A stretch of 64,000 nt of DNA from Candidatus Saccharimonadales bacterium (GTDB taxonomy: Bacteria > Patescibacteriota > Saccharimonadia > UBA4664 > SCTI01), in the NCBI GenBank assembly GCA_035479795.1, contig DATIII010000002.1:7-64006 (forward strand). The letters run 5' to 3'. The notes under the pieces are model-generated. The model was not told where the DNA came from. It worked only from the letters and a program-made list of their open reading frames with translations, and ran no database searches. The position numbers were made by a program, and so were the translations under genes. Shown piece after piece: positions 1 through 43,062 of the stretch (its first letter is position 1; every line of letters starts with the position of its first letter).

Positions 1-135
1 AACTACACCTACACTCCCAGCCCAGCCTCCTGTGCTTCCGGTGCGTGTACTTCCTACACCCTGACATCCACCTTGGAAAACACCAAGGATCCGCAGGCTA
101 CCGGTGGTACCTACACCGTCAACTCTGCTAACTAA
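1..135 (+). CDS. C-terminal fragment (truncated by window start) of a secreted/pilin-like protein ending ...CASGACTSYTLTSTLENTKDPQATGGTYTVNSAN*
   Basis: Frame-1 translation is open from nt 1 to TAA at 133-135. Thr/Ser-rich tail with a Cys-X3-Cys pair resembles pilin/pseudopilin C-termini. Confidence 0.3.
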   Translation, partial: NYTYTPSPASCASGACTSYTLTSTLENTKDPQATGGTYTVNSAN

Positions 136-150
136 TAAGATCCAACTAAA

Positions 151-184
151 AAGGACCCCGACCGAAAGGAAGGAGTCCTTTTTA
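151..184. terminator. Putative bidirectional intrinsic terminator between convergent genes
   Basis: Stem AAGGAC(151-156)/GTCCTT(175-180) is preceded by an A-run and followed by TTTTAG. It lies between the end of the upstream + gene and the stop of the - gene at 182. Confidence 0.4.
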
Positions 185-1333
185 GTCGAGGTCGAAGCCC
201 AGCTGATTAGGGTTGGGCGGAGCGTCGGCGGCCGCCGTCACATTCGCCTTGCGAACATAGCGGAAGCCGCTGGCCAGATCTGCTGGCTCAATGATGTTAC
301 CTGTGAAGCCTTGTGGGCCGAGGCGCCTGTCATTTAGCTTGATTTCGCCCCACTTATAGTAGGGGCCGGCGGGTACATTCCAGTTGCAGGTAGTTGAAAA
401 GCGGCAGGTACCGCAGGCACGCAACCATTGGTTAATAGCCGCCGTTTGATCCCATAACAAGTCCTTTTTATACAGGACAGTTGAGCGGTTATCAAATTCG
501 CCTTCCTGACGCCATTCAGCCTCAGGGTTATCCGCGCACTTTGCCTTGGAGTACAGCCAAACAGCATTGCAAAGCTCTAATGGCTCCAGGCCGGCCTCCT
601 CAGCGCACCACAAGTAAAAGTTCCTAATCGCGTCCAGGACGGTATCCGTGTAGACATTACTATCCTGGTCGCCGTACACCTTCACTATTTCATTGGCCAA
701 GGTGACCCGAGCGACATGGATGTCCACGGGGATAGGGAAGTTGAACGGGCTAACGAAGCCCGCATCCATGAAGTAATAGATAATCATGCTGACCATCTTG
801 TGCTGGAAGCCCTTAAAGCCATTGCCGCGGTGGTCGTTGCGAATACGGCGCACGGCTTCATCCCAGGAATCCAGGCCGAGAAAAATATTGCCGGGGTCGG
901 CGTCGTAGCGCTCCACCAGCCGTCGGGCGTTCTCCACCCAGAATTGCGGGGTTTGGCTTTTGCGATAGTTAAGACCGACGGCCTGCAATGCCTGACTCAG
1001 GACCTCCGGGTCCAAGTTAATGGCGTACTCCGGCAGATAATACTCCGGATGCTCATCAAAGATCTTCGACATAGCCTTAACGGCCGTCACGGAGTCCACG
1101 CCGCCGCGCATGTAGTAGTTGATATGAAACAGCAGCAGGCGATGCAGGCGACTGCCAACTTCCAGTGTTTGCGGCATATGCCGAGGGTCCTGCGGCACAA
1201 CCGCGTCGGGCCGATCAAACGGATCGGCTCCCACTCGGTAGAGCTCAAGTATGTCGTACATGACCTCCAGACCCTTTTGCCAAAAGATCCGCGTGCGCAG
1301 CTTGGGTATATTGGTTTTCGAAATAGTTCTCAC
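182..1333 (-). CDS. HhH-GPD superfamily DNA glycosylase-like protein (endonuclease III-like helix-hairpin-helix) with a Cys-rich C-terminal segment
   Basis: 383-aa ORF. The segment FKGFQHKMVSMIIYYFMDAGFVSPFNFPIPVDIHVARV matches the Nth/MutY pattern LPGVG...FG.P.FPVDTHV.RV. C-terminus CGTCRFSTTC suggests a metal cluster. Start codon is GTG or lies downstream. Confidence 0.4.
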   Translation of the reverse strand: MRTISKTNIPKLRTRIFWQKGLEVMYDILELYRVGADPFDRPDAVVPQDPRHMPQTLEVGSRLHRLLLFHINYYMRGGVDSVTAVKAMSKIFDEHPEYYLPEYAINLDPEVLSQALQAVGLNYRKSQTPQFWVENARRLVERYDADPGNIFLGLDSWDEAVRRIRNDHRGNGFKGFQHKMVSMIIYYFMDAGFVSPFNFPIPVDIHVARVTLANEIVKVYGDQDSNVYTDTVLDAIRNFYLWCAEEAGLEPLELCNAVWLYSKAKCADNPEAEWRQEGEFDNRSTVLYKKDLLWDQTAAINQWLRACGTCRFSTTCNWNVPAGPYYKWGEIKLNDRRLGPQGFTGNIIEPADLASGFRYVRKANVTAAADAPPNPNQLGFDLD

Positions 1334-35882: not shown

Positions 35883-35950
35883 GCTTATATCCTAGCTGTC
35901 ATCTCGAGCCCAGTCGAGAGATCTATTTGAAAGATGTCTCGAATACCTCG

Positions 35951-35994
35951 ACATGACAATAAAAAAGCCCCGGAGGGACCCCGCACCTGGTGAG
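35951..35994 (-). terminator. GC-rich hairpin plus U-run downstream of gene 36021-36533
   Basis: 10-bp stem CCCCGCACCT(35969-35978)/AGGTGCGGGG(35985-35994). The U-run is 12 nt beyond the stem on the minus strand. Confidence 0.4.
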
Positions 35995-36020
35995 AGGTGC
36001 GGGGTATCGCGGGGGTGTGG

Positions 36021-36533
36021 CTAGAGGACCTCACCTTCGAGGTATTTCCAGCCGGGGCGCCGCTCCTTGCAGGCCTGAATCGGCCGTAAGGCTGCGTCGG
36101 TGCGGAGGTGGATGACATGGTCGACCACCCTGCAGAAGACCCACCAGTCGGACTCCTCCTTGAGTCCCGATGCACCACCGGTGTAGTCCCGGTAGGTGCC
36201 AGCGCCAGCCCAGGGGAAGTCCCCAGGCTCGACCAGATCGGGTCGGAGCGCCGCCTCGGAGGATGGGAGGCCGGTGCGAAGAACGAACCTGAGCTTGTGG
36301 TCGACGTTGTCGGTCAGACCCTCCTCCGCGCTGATTCGGGTCTCGTCGCCAACGCTCACGAAGTAGAGGCCGGTGGAGCAGGGATCCGAAGGATCCGGCA
36401 CCCTTGCCGGGTCCAAGATCACCACAGAGACTTCCACATCGTCGCCGTACTTCTGTTGAAGGTTCGGGACCATCACTTGATGGAACCAAGTATCCAGCTG
36501 CCGCTGGATGAGGAGGCCGAATCGCTCGGACAC
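36021..36533 (-). CDS. Hypothetical protein (170 aa), high-GC, cytoplasmic
   Basis: GTG start with SD AAAGGAA. Chosen over two overlapping Arg/Gly-rich frames. No family recognised. Confidence 0.45.
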   Translation of the reverse strand: MSERFGLLIQRQLDTWFHQVMVPNLQQKYGDDVEVSVVILDPARVPDPSDPCSTGLYFVSVGDETRISAEEGLTDNVDHKLRFVLRTGLPSSEAALRPDLVEPGDFPWAGAGTYRDYTGGASGLKEESDWWVFCRVVDHVIHLRTDAALRPIQACKERRPGWKYLEGEVL

Positions 36534-36580
36534 GGGTTTCCTTTCGTAGTAGGGGCTACCTCAAAAAAGGCATGAGTACT

Positions 36581-36642: not shown

Positions 36643-37653
36643 ATGAAAAACTTCTGGAAAGACCTACCAAAGCCGTTCTTTTGCCTCGCCCCCCTTGATG
36701 ACGTCTCCGACACCGTCTTTCGCGAGGTGGTTATCCGCGCCTGCCTGTCCGGTAGGCAGGCTGGCGCGCCGAACGCCGTGTTTACCGAGTTTGCGAATAC
36801 CGATGGCTACTTACACCCAAAGGGTCGTATTAGCGTTCAGCGAAAGCTAGATGTGAATGACAGTGAACGAGAGCTGGGTGTGCCGTTAATTGCCCAGATA
36901 TGGGGCGCTAATCCAGATCATTACTACCAAACTGCCAAAGAGCTGGCGTCTACCGGAATGTATGCCGGAATTGATATAAATATGGGCTGTCCAGAAAAGG
37001 GCATTGTTAAGCGTGGCTGCTGCGGGGGGCTGATTAAAGAAGAGAATTGGGATAACGCCGCCGCCATTATCCAGGCTGTCAAAAAGGGCGGCGACGATCT
37101 GCCGGTCAGTGTTAAAACCCGGATTGGGGTTAATAAGATTATTACTGAGGATTGGATCAGTCATATCCTCAAGCAAGATATTGCCCTCTTAACCGTGCAC
37201 GGTCGCACAGTGAAGGAAATGAGCAAAGTACCGGCCCACTGGGAAGAGATCGGCAAAGCCGTGAAGCTACGGGACCAGATTGCACCGCACACGCTAATTG
37301 TTGGCAATGGCGACGTGGAGTCGCGTGAGCAAGGGGAGGAACTGGCTGCCAAATACGGCTTGGATGGCATTATGATCGGCCGCGGCGTGTTTCATAACCT
37401 GTTTGTCTTTAATAAGGAGCAAACCGATCACACACCTGAGGAGATGCTAAAAATCCTCCTTAACCATGTTGATCTGTATGGGCGCACCTGGGGGAGCGAT
37501 AAGAGCTACCAGCCGCTCAAGAAGTTCTTCAAAATCTACGTTTCCGGTTTTCCGAATGCGGCGGAACTGCGCGCCCAGCTGATGGGGACTAAGACTCCAG
37601 ACGAAGCCCGCGAGATCGTTAATTCTTATCTGAAACAACCTATAACTGCATAA
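36643..37653 (+). CDS. tRNA-dihydrouridine synthase (Dus family, TIM barrel)
   Basis: FCLAPLDDVSD, NMGCPEKGIVKRGCCGGL and VSVKTRIG motifs. Start moved to ATG 36643 because the -10 box overlaps the upstream ATG. Confidence 0.8.
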   Translation: MKNFWKDLPKPFFCLAPLDDVSDTVFREVVIRACLSGRQAGAPNAVFTEFANTDGYLHPKGRISVQRKLDVNDSERELGVPLIAQIWGANPDHYYQTAKELASTGMYAGIDINMGCPEKGIVKRGCCGGLIKEENWDNAAAIIQAVKKGGDDLPVSVKTRIGVNKIITEDWISHILKQDIALLTVHGRTVKEMSKVPAHWEEIGKAVKLRDQIAPHTLIVGNGDVESREQGEELAAKYGLDGIMIGRGVFHNLFVFNKEQTDHTPEEMLKILLNHVDLYGRTWGSDKSYQPLKKFFKIYVSGFPNAAELRAQLMGTKTPDEAREIVNSYLKQPITA

Positions 37654-37686
37654 CAAAACGCTCCCGGTAAAGGGAGCGTTTTGCGT

Positions 37687-38232
37687 TTACAACAGGCCTA
37701 ATTTACGGGCACAGGCAGGCCACGGGCGCCAGCCGCGAACGGCTTGGTCGGCGTGGGCCTTAGTATCCTGGACCTCGGCCGGGGCTAAGTCCGGACGGGC
37801 ATAGCCACCGTAGTTGTTCCAGGTACCCAGACTGTACTGGTAGGCGCCGAAGTAACCGTTACCCGAGTTACGGGTGTAGGTACTACCGGACTCACACAGA
37901 CGAATCTGGTAAAAGGCATCATCGCCAGCCGGGGCAACTACCTTAGTGGTAGCAACCTTAACAGCGGCGCGGCGGGCGGCCAATTTGGCAGCCTTAGTAG
38001 CCTCTTGCTTGGCCTTCAGCGGGGCAATCACGTCGGTATCGAAGTTAGGCTTCGGAGCGACGACAACTGTCACCGGTTGGACCTGTAGGGTATCGAGTTT
38101 GATCTCGTAAGGTGCGGGGGTCTCAACACTGGCCTGAGCCGTTGCTGAGGCGGTTATCAGACCGGTAAACGGGCTGATGACCTGGGCCGTTAGTGACAGA
38201 TGTGCCACCAACGTATGTAGATAGTTACGCAT
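37687..38232 (-). CDS. Secreted Rpf-like (resuscitation-promoting-factor / transglycosylase-like domain) protein
   Basis: C-terminus CESGSTYTRNSGNGYFGAYQYSLGTWNNYGG...AEVQDTKAH...WRPWPACA matches the Rpf domain pattern (CESGGNW..NTGNGYYGGLQ...TW...GG...WP.C). Start taken at ATG 38232 because the ORF-track ATG lies inside the promoter spacer. Signal peptide follows. Confidence 0.65.
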   Translation of the reverse strand: MRNYLHTLVAHLSLTAQVISPFTGLITASATAQASVETPAPYEIKLDTLQVQPVTVVVAPKPNFDTDVIAPLKAKQEATKAAKLAARRAAVKVATTKVVAPAGDDAFYQIRLCESGSTYTRNSGNGYFGAYQYSLGTWNNYGGYARPDLAPAEVQDTKAHADQAVRGWRPWPACARKLGLL

Positions 38233-38290
38233 AGCGCAGTTCGTAAAACGAGCTGTGATACGTCCTTTCTGGTTAGTGGTGCTGCCCAAT

Positions 38291-38320
38291 AAAAAGGACC
38301 TCGCATTGAGGTCTTTTATC
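38291..38320 (-). terminator. Intrinsic-terminator-like hairpin + U5 in the 5' leader of the Rpf-like gene
   Basis: 7-bp stem GGACCTC/GAGGTCT. On the minus strand it is followed by UUUUUAUU. It lies between the -10 at 38332-38337 and the start codon at 38232. Confidence 0.5.
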
Positions 38321-38331
38321 GAACGCGGAAT

Positions 38332-38360
38332 ATAATAAACCATAAGTGGTATTTTGTCAA
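38332..38360 (-). promoter_or_regulatory. Consensus promoter cassette (TTGACA-17-TATTAT) for the Rpf-like gene
   Basis: Minus-strand -35 (plus 38355-38360), 17-bp spacer, -10 (plus 38332-38337). Confidence 0.55.
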
Positions 38361-38461
38361 TACTTAACAGGTGGCTAGGTTTTCCCTACATCTGTAGAAT
38401 CAACTTAAGCATTCTCTCAGGTCATAGGGCTAGGCTATGATCAGTAAAAGGAATTACACCT

Positions 38462-38974
38462 ATGAAAGTTCGTAAATCATTAATTGTGGCCTGTGCGGCG
38501 GGTAGCCTTGGTCTGGCCAGTGTAGGCGCACTGGCTGCCACTAGCACAAACTCTTCCGGCAGTTTAGTGGATGATGTAACCAACCATTTCCATCTAAACA
38601 AATCAGAGGTCCAGCAGGTATTTGATAATCATCGAAAAACCGAGAAGGCCAATCACGAGCAGAAATATGAAGATAGGCTAAACCAGGCCGTCAAGGATGG
38701 CAAGCTGACATCGGATCAGAAAGATAAAATTCTGGCCAAGCACAAAGAGATGATCAGCTTTATGGAGTCACTAAAGGATAAGACGCCACAAGAGCGCCAC
38801 GACGCTATGAAGACTAAGATGGACGAGCTAAAAACCTGGGAGAAAGATAATAACATCCCAGTGGGTTACCTGGGCGGACCGGGAATGGGGCATCATGGTT
38901 TCGGACACGGGCCGAAAGGTGATGGACCAGGTGAGGGGATAGGCATGCGCATGATGGACGGCGAGCCTCGATAA
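38462..38974 (+). CDS. Secreted LTxxQ-motif (Spy/CpxP-like) protein with a His/Gly-rich C-terminal tail
   Basis: Signal peptide. Helical, charged core with LTSDQKDKI. C-terminus GGPGMGHHGFGHGPKGDGPGEG suggests metal binding. Confidence 0.4.
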   Translation: MKVRKSLIVACAAGSLGLASVGALAATSTNSSGSLVDDVTNHFHLNKSEVQQVFDNHRKTEKANHEQKYEDRLNQAVKDGKLTSDQKDKILAKHKEMISFMESLKDKTPQERHDAMKTKMDELKTWEKDNNIPVGYLGGPGMGHHGFGHGPKGDGPGEGIGMRMMDGEPR

Positions 38975-38998: not shown

Positions 38999-39028
38999 GG
39001 AGGCCGGCGATATTGCCGGCCTCCTTTT
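38999..39028 (+). terminator. Intrinsic terminator (10-bp GC stem + TTTT), usable by both convergent genes
   Basis: GGAGGCCGGC(38999-39008)/GCCGGCCTCC(39015-39024), then TTTTGG. A/T-rich on the other side as well. Confidence 0.6.
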
Positions 39029-39828: not shown

Positions 39829-40617
39829 ATGAGAGCTCTCTGGACTGGGTCCCTTAGCTTTGGCTTAATCAACATCCCCGTACGGCTATATTCGGGTAGT
39901 GAGTCACGGGGTGGTATTGAGCTGACCATGCTTCATAAAAAGGACCTTTCACCAATCCGTTATGCCCGAATTTGCCGCGCCGACGGCAAGGAAATTCCGT
40001 TCGACCAGATTGTAAAGGGCTACGAGTACCAGGAAGGTGACTACGTGGTGCTAACCGATGACGATCTGAAAAAGGCCAATGCCCGGCGGACCAAGAGCAT
40101 TGATATCGAAGAGTTTGTGCACGAGGATGAGATTGATGTGCGCTACTACGAAAAGCCATACTATCTAGAACCTGATAAAAATGCGGCCAAACCTTACGCT
40201 CTGCTACGAGAGGCTTTGAATAAAAGCGGACGCGTGGCGATTGCCAAGTTTGTGCTGCGCAATAAGGAGCATTTAGCCGCCGTTAAACCGGTTGGCAAGG
40301 TATTGGTTCTGGAGCAAATGCGCTTTCCATCAGATCTGCGAGCGCCATCCAAGCTAGATATCCCGGAAGCCTCAGCCGCCACCAAAAAGGAGATTGATAT
40401 GGCCCTGGCGCTGATTGATCAACTGAGTGCGCCATTTATACCTGAAGATTTTCACGACACCTATACCGAGGAACTCGAAGCACTGATTGAAGCCAAAGCT
40501 AAAGGCAAAAAGCCCAAAGCCGCTGGACCAGCACCCAAGGCCACACCGAGTAAAGACCTAATGAGCATGCTCAAGGCCAGCCTAGAGAAGGAGCGCGACA
40601 AAGCCGCGTCCAAATAA
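39829..40617 (+). CDS. ku: Non-homologous end-joining protein Ku
   Basis: N-terminus MRALWTGSLSFGLINIPVRLYSG and the Ku core. Lys-rich C-terminus. Confidence 0.9.
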   Translation: MRALWTGSLSFGLINIPVRLYSGSESRGGIELTMLHKKDLSPIRYARICRADGKEIPFDQIVKGYEYQEGDYVVLTDDDLKKANARRTKSIDIEEFVHEDEIDVRYYEKPYYLEPDKNAAKPYALLREALNKSGRVAIAKFVLRNKEHLAAVKPVGKVLVLEQMRFPSDLRAPSKLDIPEASAATKKEIDMALALIDQLSAPFIPEDFHDTYTEELEALIEAKAKGKKPKAAGPAPKATPSKDLMSMLKASLEKERDKAASK

Positions 40618-43062
40618 ATGGCCCTGGCCGAATATAAAAAGAAGCGGACATTCAAGAGTAGTCCTGAACCGGCTGGCAAATTACATAAGCCGGAAAAGCA
40701 CTTGCGATTTGTGGTCCAAAAACACCACGCCAGCCAGCTCCATTATGATTTTCGACTAGAGCTCGATGGCGTCTTAAAGAGCTGGGCGGTGCCCAAGGGC
40801 CCCTCTTTAAATCCAGATGACAAGCGACTAGCTATGATGGTCGAAGATCACCCCTATGAGTACCGGGATTTCGAAGGGGTTATTCCGAAAGGCAATTATG
40901 GCGCCGGCAAGGTGATCGTATGGGACGAGGGTACTTATGAAGATTACGAGCAATCAAAAGATCTAAAAACTCAGATTAAAAATCTTCGCGCGGGACTAAA
41001 GAAAGGCGACTTTAAGTTTGTGCTGCATGGCCAAAAGCTGAATGGGGCCTACGTGTTGGCTAAGATGCAGGGTCGGGGTGAAAATAATTGGCTACTGATC
41101 AAGAAAAAGGACGATTTTGCCACCGCTGAGGATGTGACCAAACAAGGCGAATCTGTAAAATCCGGCCTGGACGTAGAAGCGGTCGGTGATGTTCCGGGCA
41201 AAAAATGGCTCAAGACGCCGAAGTTAAATCTGAAAGACGCTCCTAAGGCCACCCAACCAGGCAAGCTAGAACCGATGCTGGCGACATTATCAAAGGAAGC
41301 ATTTGACGGTCCGGACTGGCTGTATGAGATCAAGTGGGACGGCTACCGAATATTGGCGCATCTGGGAGACGGTGAGGTGAAACTACTTAGCCGCAATGGC
41401 AAAGACTACACCGAAGTGTTCGCGCCGATTGCAACGGAGCTATCAAGCTTGAAATTAAATGCCATCTTGGACGGCGAGATCGTGGTCTTGGACAAGGATG
41501 GCAAAAGTGACTTTGGGGCCCTCCAGGATTACCAAAAAACGGGTGCGGGCCATCTGGTATACGAGGTTTTTGACGCTCCTTTTGCAGATGGTCACGACCT
41601 TCGCGAACTCTCATTGACTAAGCGAAAGGAGATCGTCGCCGAAGCCATAGAGGATCTGGAAAACGTCCGCTATAGCGACCACATTACCGGAGGCGGCAAG
41701 GCCTTCTTCGCCCAGGCCGAAAAGCTGGGCTTGGAAGGCATAATGGCTAAACAAAATGACAGCCAATACTTAAATGGCAAACGGGGACAAAGTTGGCTGA
41801 AGATTAAGACCCACCAACGGCAGGAGGTGGTGGTTGGCGGCTGGACAGAGCCGCGCGGCGGTCGCAAAGGTATGGGCGCCCTTATTGTTGGCGTTTATGA
41901 GGAGAAGAGTCTACGCTACGTCGGTAATGTTGGTGGCGGATTTACTGAAAAGAGCATTGATGACATTTTGGTAAAATTGAAGCTCTTGGAGCGCAGGACA
42001 TCACCCTTTAGCGGGCCAGTCAAAAATGATACTGCCATCCATTGGGTGAAGCCCGATCTGTTAGCCGAGGTAAAGTTTGCCGAATGGACAGGGGACGGCC
42101 ATCTGCGGCAGCCGATATTCTTGGGACTGCGTGAAGATAAGGAGGCCCAGAAGGTGCAAAAGGAAGAAGCCATCGAACCAGGTGGGAAGTTTACACCGAC
42201 TCATCGCGATAAGGTATTTTGGCCCAAGGAAAAATACACCAAGGGTGACGTGATTGATTATTACGATGCCGTATCTGCCACCATCCTGCCGCACCTGGTT
42301 TATCGGCCGCAGTCAATGAATCGTCATCCGAACGGCATTAAGGGGGCTAGCTTCTTTCAGAAGGATGTCGAAAAACACCCTGATTGGGTCAAAACCAAAC
42401 CGATTTACTCAGAGTCAAACGATGGGGATATTAACTGGCTGATCTGTAACGACCGCGACACACTGTTATACATGGCCAATTTGGGCTGTATTGAGCTCAA
42501 CCCCTGGCACTCGCGCACCGCTAGCTTGGATAAGCCAGATTACTGTTTGATCGACCTTGATGCCAAGACCACCAAATTTGAAGTCGTTGTCGAAGTGGCC
42601 AAAGCGGCTAAGAAGCTACTAGATGAGATTAGCGCCGATTGCTTTGTAAAAACTTCTGGAAAAACTGGCATGCACATATTGATACCGCTAGGTGCTAAAT
42701 ATTCCTATGAACAATCCCGGCAATTTGCACAATTAATTGTTGGCAAATTGAATGAAAGATTGCCGAAGATAACCAGCGTGGAGCGCAATCCAGATAAACG
42801 TCGCGGTAAGATCTATCTGGATTACCTACAAAACCGCAAAGGCCAGACGATGGCAGCCGCCTACTGCCTGCGACCCGTCGAAGGCGCCCCCGTTAGCGCC
42901 CCTCTTAAATGGAGCGAAGTTAAGAAGGGCCTTGATCCCCGAAAATTCAACATAAAAACTATGCCAGCTCGTATCAAGAAAGTCGGTGATCTTCATAATG
43001 GCCTTACTGGTCACAGAGGCATTGATATGATGAAATGCCTCAAAAATCTCGAAAAGTCTTAA
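40618..43062 (+). CDS. ligD: Multidomain ATP-dependent DNA ligase LigD (3'-phosphoesterase, ligase and polymerase/primase domains)
   Basis: PE domain HYDFRLELDG...WAVPKGPS. Ligase KxDG as EIKWDGYR. C-terminal LigD polymerase domain. 814 aa. Immediately follows ku. Confidence 0.9.
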   Translation: MALAEYKKKRTFKSSPEPAGKLHKPEKHLRFVVQKHHASQLHYDFRLELDGVLKSWAVPKGPSLNPDDKRLAMMVEDHPYEYRDFEGVIPKGNYGAGKVIVWDEGTYEDYEQSKDLKTQIKNLRAGLKKGDFKFVLHGQKLNGAYVLAKMQGRGENNWLLIKKKDDFATAEDVTKQGESVKSGLDVEAVGDVPGKKWLKTPKLNLKDAPKATQPGKLEPMLATLSKEAFDGPDWLYEIKWDGYRILAHLGDGEVKLLSRNGKDYTEVFAPIATELSSLKLNAILDGEIVVLDKDGKSDFGALQDYQKTGAGHLVYEVFDAPFADGHDLRELSLTKRKEIVAEAIEDLENVRYSDHITGGGKAFFAQAEKLGLEGIMAKQNDSQYLNGKRGQSWLKIKTHQRQEVVVGGWTEPRGGRKGMGALIVGVYEEKSLRYVGNVGGGFTEKSIDDILVKLKLLERRTSPFSGPVKNDTAIHWVKPDLLAEVKFAEWTGDGHLRQPIFLGLREDKEAQKVQKEEAIEPGGKFTPTHRDKVFWPKEKYTKGDVIDYYDAVSATILPHLVYRPQSMNRHPNGIKGASFFQKDVEKHPDWVKTKPIYSESNDGDINWLICNDRDTLLYMANLGCIELNPWHSRTASLDKPDYCLIDLDAKTTKFEVVVEVAKAAKKLLDEISADCFVKTSGKTGMHILIPLGAKYSYEQSRQFAQLIVGKLNERLPKITSVERNPDKRRGKIYLDYLQNRKGQTMAAAYCLRPVEGAPVSAPLKWSEVKKGLDPRKFNIKTMPARIKKVGDLHNGLTGHRGIDMMKCLKNLEKS

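Follow-up and report, generated by a model that had tools for sequence, protein, structure and literature searches.

A terminator-like hairpin nested in a predicted 5'-terminal stem in the leader of a Saccharibacterial Rpf-like gene

Why should a gene with a consensus promoter carry, at the very beginning of its predicted transcript, a hairpin that looks like an intrinsic terminator? This question is raised by a locus in a 64,000-nucleotide (nt) stretch of Candidatus Saccharimonadales DNA (contig DATIII010000002.1; the whole stretch is called the window hereafter), where the minus strand encodes a small Rpf-like secreted protein. A first-pass annotation had described the hairpin in the leader of this gene as a canonical intrinsic terminator which could make expression conditional on anti-termination. 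By folding the leader and comparing it with its orthologues, we arrive at a modified answer: the hairpin seems to be the tip of a longer stem, named P1, that reaches the predicted 5' end of the transcript, and we give about an even chance (roughly 50%) to the reading that P1 acts as a leaky leader terminator nested in this 5'-terminal stem. The features on which the argument depends are as follows.

38355..38360, minus strand: -35 hexamer TTGACA, exact in 18/18 orthologous leaders
38332..38337, minus strand: -10 hexamer TATTAT after a 17-nt spacer, with an 11/12 consensus match for the -35 and -10 hexamers together
38324..38326, minus strand: predicted start of transcription, placed by promoter geometry 6-8 nt beyond the -10 hexamer
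38281..38326, minus strand: P1, a long bipartite hairpin of 46 nt, predicted in both the minimum free energy (MFE) and the centroid structures
38297..38313, minus strand: apex stem-loop GACCUC-AAUGC-GAGGUC, terminator-like, with a folding free energy (dG) of -8.2
38288..38296, minus strand: tract C + UUUUU + A + UU after the apex stem (C38296, TTTTT at 38295-38291, then A and TT)
37687..38232, minus strand: Rpf-like secreted protein of 181 amino acids (aa), with a transglycosylase-like domain (PF06737)

Both the consensus promoter (38360-38332) and the stem-loop with its U run are found on the minus strand exactly where the first-pass annotation had placed them, and the ATG of its open reading frame (ORF) track (38343-38341) indeed falls within the spacer between the -35 and -10 hexamers. 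The start codon at 38232, which had been preferred instead, is borne out by a database protein with 100% full-length identity to the 181-aa product (P0001, a transglycosylase family protein from a Candidatus Saccharimonadales metagenome-assembled genome, MAG) and by the N-termini of the orthologues, which likewise begin with MRN. In all orthologues the -10 element has the form TAnnnT and lies 15-17 nt from TTGACA. After TATTAT the minus strand of the window reads ATTCCGCGTTCGATAAAA-GACCTC-AATGC-GAGGTC-CTTTTTATT-GGGCAGC, and a consensus scan found no second promoter-like site between the hairpin and the ATG; this, together with the covarying RNA structures further downstream in the long-leader orthologues described below, supports the earlier view that the hairpin belongs to the transcribed leader.

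What had been overlooked is that, in the predicted fold, the hairpin is merely the apex of a 46-nt stem that starts from the predicted 5' end. P1 comprises 19 base pairs (bp), in which a lower stem GCGUUCGAUAAAA : UUUUAUUGGGC(A)GC meets, across a 2-nt CU internal loop, the GC-rich apex hairpin standing on top of it (6 bp with 4 G-C pairs, closed by a 5-nt loop). The first paired base, G38326, is located 6 nt past the -10 hexamer, and thus coincides with the predicted first transcribed base. Counted from the predicted start (38326-38324), the apex hairpin starts near +13, and about +38 marks the end of the U tract, with 56 nt left to the ATG at 38232; the distal U's of the tract pair with AAAA of the lower stem after their transcription. 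The leader fold is more stable than that of shuffled sequences (z = -3.3, 0/200), and P1 of the window has an MFE of -19.2 in the sense orientation against -13.2 in the antisense one, with 3 G.U pairs. Since the stem extends to the predicted 5' end, a rival function is opened for it as a 5'-terminal stabiliser, which is weighed further below.

The first-pass annotation had suggested looking for the hairpin upstream of orthologous genes, and it is indeed present there. Orthologues were taken from a scan of one genome per species, from metagenome contigs and from the loci of proteins found by homology search, a search pointing to about 311 orthologues overall, and the comparison set consists of 18 distinct Saccharibacteria leaders with 47-82% protein identity to the window (17 related genomes). 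A GC-rich apex hairpin occurs in 18/18 of them, starting about 16-29 nt after the -10 element and followed directly on its 3' side by a U run, while the 5' strand of P1 starts 4-10 nt after the -10 element in every orthologue and its 3' strand pairs back to the 5' end. The apex hairpins have 6-13 bp, loops of 3-7 nt and dG from -6.6 to -14.5. The same P1 architecture was obtained for 16 leaders parsed independently, plus two with extra helices; the comparison of structures is based on per-sequence folds and a hand-parsed layout, and MAFFT plus RNAalifold on 15 leaders gave no consensus structure, the stems being unalignable by sequence. In fact at least 10 unrelated sequences form the apex stems, for example GACCUC, UCCUGC, GAGCUUGCU, AAGUCGUGCC, AGGGCU, AGCUCGUCU, AGUCUGUC, AGUAUGUCU, GGCCUGU and GGCCCUACC, and the loops vary freely (AAUGC, AUUUGC, CUUAUGU, UUUU, GAAA, UUCG and others). 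The predicted hairpin is in other words retained through repeated complete turnover of its stem sequence. Just 3' of the apex, 4-6 U's are kept in 17/18 orthologues, the remaining L066 having 3 with a stem that ends in two more U's, and the unpaired bases immediately 3' of the apex stem amount to 22 U, 5 C and 0 purines. These bases are unpaired in the final fold and yet are U, which argues that the U is kept for its own sake. The lower stem reaches 7-12 bp or more past the U run and has the conserved pairing CGYUC/GUGC (5') : GGGC/GCAC. Moreover, when the window is compared with its closest relative L126 (82% protein identity), both promoter hexamers are 100% identical and the P1 strands 95-100%, against 53% for the spacer, 20% for the 5' unpaired tail and 58% for the linker that follows P1; the sole change in the P1 stem turns an A-U pair into G.U, and the loop differs.

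How good a terminator would such a hairpin be? An obvious intrinsic terminator follows the stop codon in 17/18 of the genes, which indicates that these organisms use intrinsic termination. By the U-tract score nT, the leader apex hairpins (median 3.96) are equal to the 3' terminators of the same genes (3.89), with 2.57 for the window copy, while their stems are weaker (median dG -9.1 against -13.6) and their composite d-score is about 0 in the median against +15.6, with -23.5 for the copy in the window; the d-score, which combines the formula of d'Aubenton-Carafa 1990 with modern energies, has only a relative meaning. Equal U-tract quality combined with weaker stems fits a leaky stop. For nascent RNA ending with the apex stem, partition-function calculations give the hairpin a probability of 0.97 in the window and at least 0.9 in 15/16 leaders, and no fold competing with it was found in the nascent RNA, of which only about 12 nt precede the hairpin. 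This leaves neither a cis antiterminator nor space for an aptamer ahead of the hairpin, so that any modulation must be due to a factor acting in trans or to general termination parameters. The first-pass annotation is supported in the observation, its position and its conservation, but neither in the word canonical, as the stem is short, a C precedes the U run, the score is among the lowest of the 18 and the leader stems are systematically weaker, nor in an expression conditional on anti-termination, as no alternative fold competes with the hairpin.

A leaky leader terminator of this kind would work in the following way. The consensus, very strong promoter would start transcription, and the initial ~13 nt would provide the 5' strand of the lower stem. 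The short GC-rich hairpin (38313-38297) would then form without a competitor and, with the U run directly after it, would present the geometry of an intrinsic terminator having a deliberately weak stem. A fraction of the polymerases would halt at the U run and release an RNA of about 40 nt, and this would cap the output of the strong promoter for a potentially self-damaging muralytic enzyme. Polymerases reading through would transcribe UUUUAUUGGGC, which would close with the 5' end into the 19-bp 5'-terminal stem, and the stem may protect or mark the full-length mRNA. Modulation would be supplied in trans by an RNA-binding factor, or by NusA/NusG, nucleoside triphosphate (NTP) pools or the elongation rate. 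What the leaders show is a structure that is conserved, strand-specific and terminator-like; termination at the U run and its regulation are what we infer from it. Several points speak against this reading. The P1 stem extends well past what a terminator needs, up to the 5' end; the window copy is one of the weakest of the 18 (6-bp stem, C ahead of the U run) and may terminate little; and in the short-leader subgroup the apex is conserved in sequence (GACC...GGUC), hence covariation is modest there. In a more distant clade with LysM-Rpf proteins (L006:2697-2790, L069:713-800, L072:2197-2290), a lower stem CGCUCAAAAAA-loop-UUUUUUGGGCG stands directly after the TTGACA promoter, and its hairpin has no GC-rich apex and no U tract after it. 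This suggests that the 5' hairpin is older than the terminator-like tip, and the U run may be conserved partly as a pairing strand of that older hairpin. Finally, the loci yielded neither a regulator nor an antiterminator fold, and no neighbouring gene proved to be conserved among them.

The remainder of the leader contains further structured parts, and in some orthologues a whole additional domain.

38271..38280, minus strand: single-stranded linker ACCACUAACC, counterpart of the orthologues' conserved ACCUUnUAAAC / UAAAC
38263..38269, minus strand: Shine-Dalgarno (SD)-like GAAAGGA, 30 nt before the AUG, 100% identical to L126
38227..38263, minus strand: second hairpin, ACGUAU : AUGCGU, with the start codon in its stem, from the RNA fold
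L001:2204-2320, L002:2805-2919, L004:2768-2883, L066:2381-2497: long-leader domains, from the alignment
L128:1377-1506, L129:1396-1506, L130:1379-1506, L131:1396-1506, and weakly also L134: long-leader domains

Comparison of the leaders shows that both the window and L126 have a degenerate linker. Of the 18 leaders, 17 carry GAAAGGA(G) or something very similar (GAAAGGU, AAAAGGA), and L127 has only CGGAG. The second hairpin fills the gap between SD and AUG, and is predicted to bring the SD beside the start codon; relative to L126 its changes are confined to the loop. Similar SD-hairpin-AUG layouts are seen in L003, L005, L065 and L135, and the last two differ by a compensatory change (GCCGC...GCGGC versus GCCGUA...UACGGC). 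Long leaders of 150-180 nt are found in 9 orthologues, where an extra domain of about 90 nt is located between UAAACG and the SD. In the alignment of 8 of these 9 long leaders, a helix P2 (AGGGC:GYCCU) encloses ACCUUnUAAAC and a hairpin with an AG.AAU loop, the single-stranded bases of both being invariant, and in the 3' part a variable hairpin is followed by AUGGG:CCCAU around the SD. The consensus fold shows compensatory changes in 13/25 pairs. For a subset of 20 pairs in four helices, 92.4% of the cells are paired, against 78.9% in shuffled and 36-52% in slid alignments, and 11 pairs change on both sides (0/500 shuffles). The domain has no Rfam match, and the model R2 built for it finds no copy in the window. 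We regard it as a candidate for a new cis-regulatory structured RNA.

Could the hairpin be a product of chance, or a palindrome acting at the DNA level as an operator or a bidirectional terminator, without any RNA function in the sense leader? For the window copy taken alone the case for more than chance is weak to modest: a loose terminator pattern has 34 matches in 128 kb (both window strands), mostly inside genes, and is expected about 0.02-0.03 times per 90-nt leader in one orientation. In favour of a DNA-level palindrome, the plus strand also reads GACCTC-GCATT-GAGGTC-TTTTATC. Within the 64-kb window it is the sole terminator-like hairpin between a promoter and its own gene. On comparative grounds it is the conservation of position in all orthologues that decides, with a stem sequence that is unconserved, unlike that of an operator. 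G.U pairs make up 60/304 (20%) of the P1 pairs, in 16/16 leaders the sense RNA folds more stably than its antisense, with a mean difference of 9.7 kcal/mol, the conserved GUUC:GGGC pairing is no DNA inverted repeat, and in most orthologues no U run follows the hairpin when the opposite strand is read (L001, for example, has AAATTTGAC). These four features together exclude an operator, a cruciform and a bidirectional terminator; against the last it also counts that the neighbouring gene is divergent, and thus there is nothing to terminate. Judged from the aligned leaders, P1 is a strand-specific, RNA-level element of the sense transcript, and an origin by chance or at the DNA level seems very improbable.

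The chief rival reading is that P1 mainly serves as a 5'-terminal hairpin stabilising the mRNA against 5'-end-dependent decay, its terminator look being a by-product of a GC-tipped, A/U-rich stem. It would agree with this that the stem starts at the predicted 5' end in every orthologue, that the lower stem is conserved far beyond the U run, that L006, L069 and L072 retain the lower stem alone without terminator features, and that the apex hairpins are weak as terminators. However, some termination is expected from any GC hairpin with U5-6 directly after it, irrespective of its function; a harmful termination could have been avoided by replacing the stem-proximal U's, yet 22/27 of the unpaired bases are U; the A/U orientation has not flipped across the 18 leaders; and a small U/U internal loop is retained, though a continuous helix would protect better. 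We consider the stabiliser possible but on the unlikely side; it should be noted that the terminator and stabiliser functions are not mutually exclusive. Still less probable to us is that P1, the linker (ACCUUnUAAAC) and the SD/AUG hairpin form together a platform for an RNA-binding protein, or a ligand-responsive leader acting on translation or processing, of which the window would have a reduced version and the long leaders the full sensor. The strong covariation and the invariant single-stranded bases of the ~90-nt domain are in its favour, as are the two alternative partners of GGGC, which can pair with the 5' end (the P1 base) or downstream (P2) as a possible switch, the start codon of the short type, held in a stem, and the SD of the long type, enclosed by AUGGG:CCCAU, and the restriction of the element to the Rpf-like gene. 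On the other side, the window has no extra domain and a degenerate linker, neither a protein or ligand as candidate nor an Rfam match was found, and the P1 loops are unconserved, unlike those of the terminator-embedded thiS/HMP-PP (hydroxymethylpyrimidine pyrophosphate) aptamers (PMC6478431).

With the leaky terminator as the preferred reading, known systems can be compared with P1. The ydaO/yuaA cyclic di-AMP (c-di-AMP) riboswitch (RF00379) precedes rpfA and further genes for cell-wall hydrolases, and a terminator often serves as its expression platform; the likeness lies in a cis-regulatory leader on Rpf or cell-wall hydrolase genes. It has however a pseudo-symmetric aptamer of ~130 nt, whereas the leader in the window is about 95 nt, puts the terminator first and has no match to the RF00379 covariance model; the earlier judgement that the leader is too short for this class is therefore sound. 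Stabilising 5'-terminal stem-loops, such as hp1 of E. coli ompA and those of the B. subtilis ermC and aprE leaders, share with P1 a stable hairpin within a few nt of the mRNA 5' end (for P1 as predicted), but they have neither a U tract after them nor a terminator look, and P1 has both. In the lambda PR'-tR' region with Q, and with NusG paralogues of the LoaP/RfaH type, promoter-proximal terminators are passed by processive antiterminators, and the likeness, a strong constitutive promoter with a close terminator and a gene reliant on read-through, is purely architectural; no Q-like or NusG-paralogue gene, no ops-like or Q-binding-element-like (QBE-like) sequence and no conserved neighbour was found at the loci examined.

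The closest functional analogue is the M. tuberculosis rpfB 5' untranslated region (UTR), where an intrinsic terminator (a stem-loop with poly-U) was demonstrated by Northern blot and rapid amplification of cDNA 3' ends (3'-RACE), the terminated RNA being about 130 nt (Schwenk et al. 2018, PMC6009663), and which was later proposed to sense B12 (bioRxiv 10.1101/2024.07.19.603033). Common to both systems are an Rpf-family muralytic gene, a terminator in its leader, putative in Saccharibacteria, and the rationale of keeping a potentially lethal enzyme under tight control. The rpfB terminator is however located at about +100, ending about +124, after a region with an antiterminated alternative fold, whereas the Saccharibacterial hairpin lies at about +13 and has no competing fold; there is no relation in sequence or in Rfam, the hosts belong to Actinomycetota and Saccharibacteria respectively, and only the Saccharibacterial hairpin is nested in a 5'-terminal stem. 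The HMP-PP riboswitch (thiS motif) is a terminator-embedded aptamer with a conserved loop and a likewise conserved alternative fold, in which the stem is broken close to the U run (Atilho et al. 2019, PMC6478431). It resembles P1 as a compact leader on one gene class, with an extended terminator-like hairpin and no upstream aptamer, but the loops of P1 vary freely and no alternative fold is predicted for it. Altogether the element is best classed with the leader terminators or attenuators, as a variant whose nested layout at the 5' end is unusual. Our literature search found no paper on riboswitches, RNA motifs or RNA regulation of this gene in Saccharibacteria.

Rpf-type muralytic enzymes can kill the cell that produces them, and in Actinobacteria they are under RNA-level control. 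Saccharibacteria are ultrasmall cells that live as epibionts, in the cultivated cases on Actinobacteria; to our knowledge they have very few known regulators, and almost no RNA regulation is known in Patescibacteria, the Candidate Phyla Radiation (CPR). The comparison shows that Saccharibacteria have independently placed a conserved RNA element on their small Rpf-like gene. Its layout is unusual, for the terminator-like hairpin stands within a 5'-terminal stem where the predicted transcript begins, and there is no cis sensor. If P1 attenuates, it would be a compact throttle on a consensus promoter, and it could help to find a regulator acting in trans, in a phylum whose gene regulation is largely unexplored. 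A bolder proposal is that the window hairpin is the minimal form of an undescribed, Saccharibacteria-specific family of leader RNAs on a secreted Rpf-like enzyme, in which a nested terminator would work with a dedicated trans-acting factor, and the aptamer-like ~90-nt domain of the long variants would be a new class of riboswitch or protein-binding RNA; we offer it as speculation and hold it to be rather doubtful.

Searches revealed neither a known family nor further copies of the element. Rfam scans at gathering scores over the whole window, and likewise over 40 further loci (Actinobacterial homologues and Saccharibacteria paralogues), gave no relevant family and only tRNA and tmRNA, and with relaxed thresholds nothing appeared at E <= 10 for 38100-38500 or at E <= 5 for L001-L006, ydaO RF00379 included. 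A covariance model of the short-type P1, R1, found no further copy in the window or in 60 loci; its matches beyond the seeds are generic gene-end terminators, for example L070 5030-5085 and window 134-195. P1 is thus a non-repeated element with no regulon among the loci searched, and R1 is too terminator-like to be a good probe.

Several other candidates were considered for the leader and rejected. A leader peptide could start at the ATG within the P1 loop (38306-38304), but this ATG lacks an SD and is missing in L126. Sequestration of the SD by the 3' strand of the hairpin was also considered: both the window and L126 show complementarity between AGAAAGGAC (38270-38262) and GUCCUUUUU (38299-38291), which the other orthologues do not conserve. 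For reiterative transcription or NTP-sensing attenuation in the style of pyrG/pyrBI there is neither a homopolymer at the start nor a leader ORF; the loop sizes and sequences do not fit an ANTAR dual hexaloop or a BglG-type ribonucleic antiterminator (RAT); and an RNase III substrate is unlikely, the helix being interrupted and only about 19 bp long.

Different conserved leaders occur elsewhere among the loci. Upstream of larger RpfB-like paralogues (L014, L016, L020, L022, L026-L031, L078, L082-L084), the promoter is followed by ACGGUAAAACAAAAACAAAA, a small hairpin and AUUAUUUUACC, where GGUAAAA can pair with UUUUACC; at the Rfam gathering score no match was obtained for those of L014, L016, L020, L022, L026, L027, L029, L030, L078, L082 and L083. 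Another conserved upstream block, GTGGTAAAAT...GTTTACATTGTT.GTTCAATT, is shared by L010, L013, L074, L076 and L077.

As for the gene itself, the match to PF06737 in Pfam has 58.4 bits (cut-off 27) with E = 1.2e-15, and covers residues 143-211 of the 218-aa ORF, the domain being C-terminal; the close relatives of the protein are from Saccharibacteria MAGs throughout. The gene is divergent from a 170-aa secreted-protein gene (38462-38974, plus strand) and convergent with a Dus gene, and its own 3' end carries the following element.

37651..37680, minus strand: 3' intrinsic terminator of the Rpf-like gene, AACGCUCCC-UUUACC-GGGAGCGUU and then UUGUUAU, taken as internal reference

This terminator has a dG of -12.9 to -15.5 and a d-score of +17.7. 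The hairpin AACGCUCCC-UUUACC-GGGAGCGUU, within 37651-37690, has A's on one side and U's on the other and overlaps the end of the Dus ORF; the convergent genes flanking it end at 37653 (Dus) and 37687 (Rpf-like), and it is likely a bidirectional terminator. On the other side of the Rpf-like gene, the -35 hexamers of the two divergent promoters overlap in TTGACAA/TTGTCAA at about 38354-38360. The 170-aa divergent neighbour has no Pfam match; its N-terminus resembles a signal peptide, its middle part is charged and helical, and its tail is rich in Gly, His and Met. It is followed by a very strong terminator at 38999-39024 on the plus strand (11-bp stem, dG -23).

Further along the plus strand, two adjacent ORFs of 262 aa and 814 aa (39829-43062), judged by their sequence, resemble a Ku / LigD pair of non-homologous end joining. 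At 35885-36575 there are several long overlapping ORFs on both strands in a GC-richer stretch, whose coding strand and frame are uncertain; within it, a greedy ORF choice gives 36021-36533 on the minus strand.

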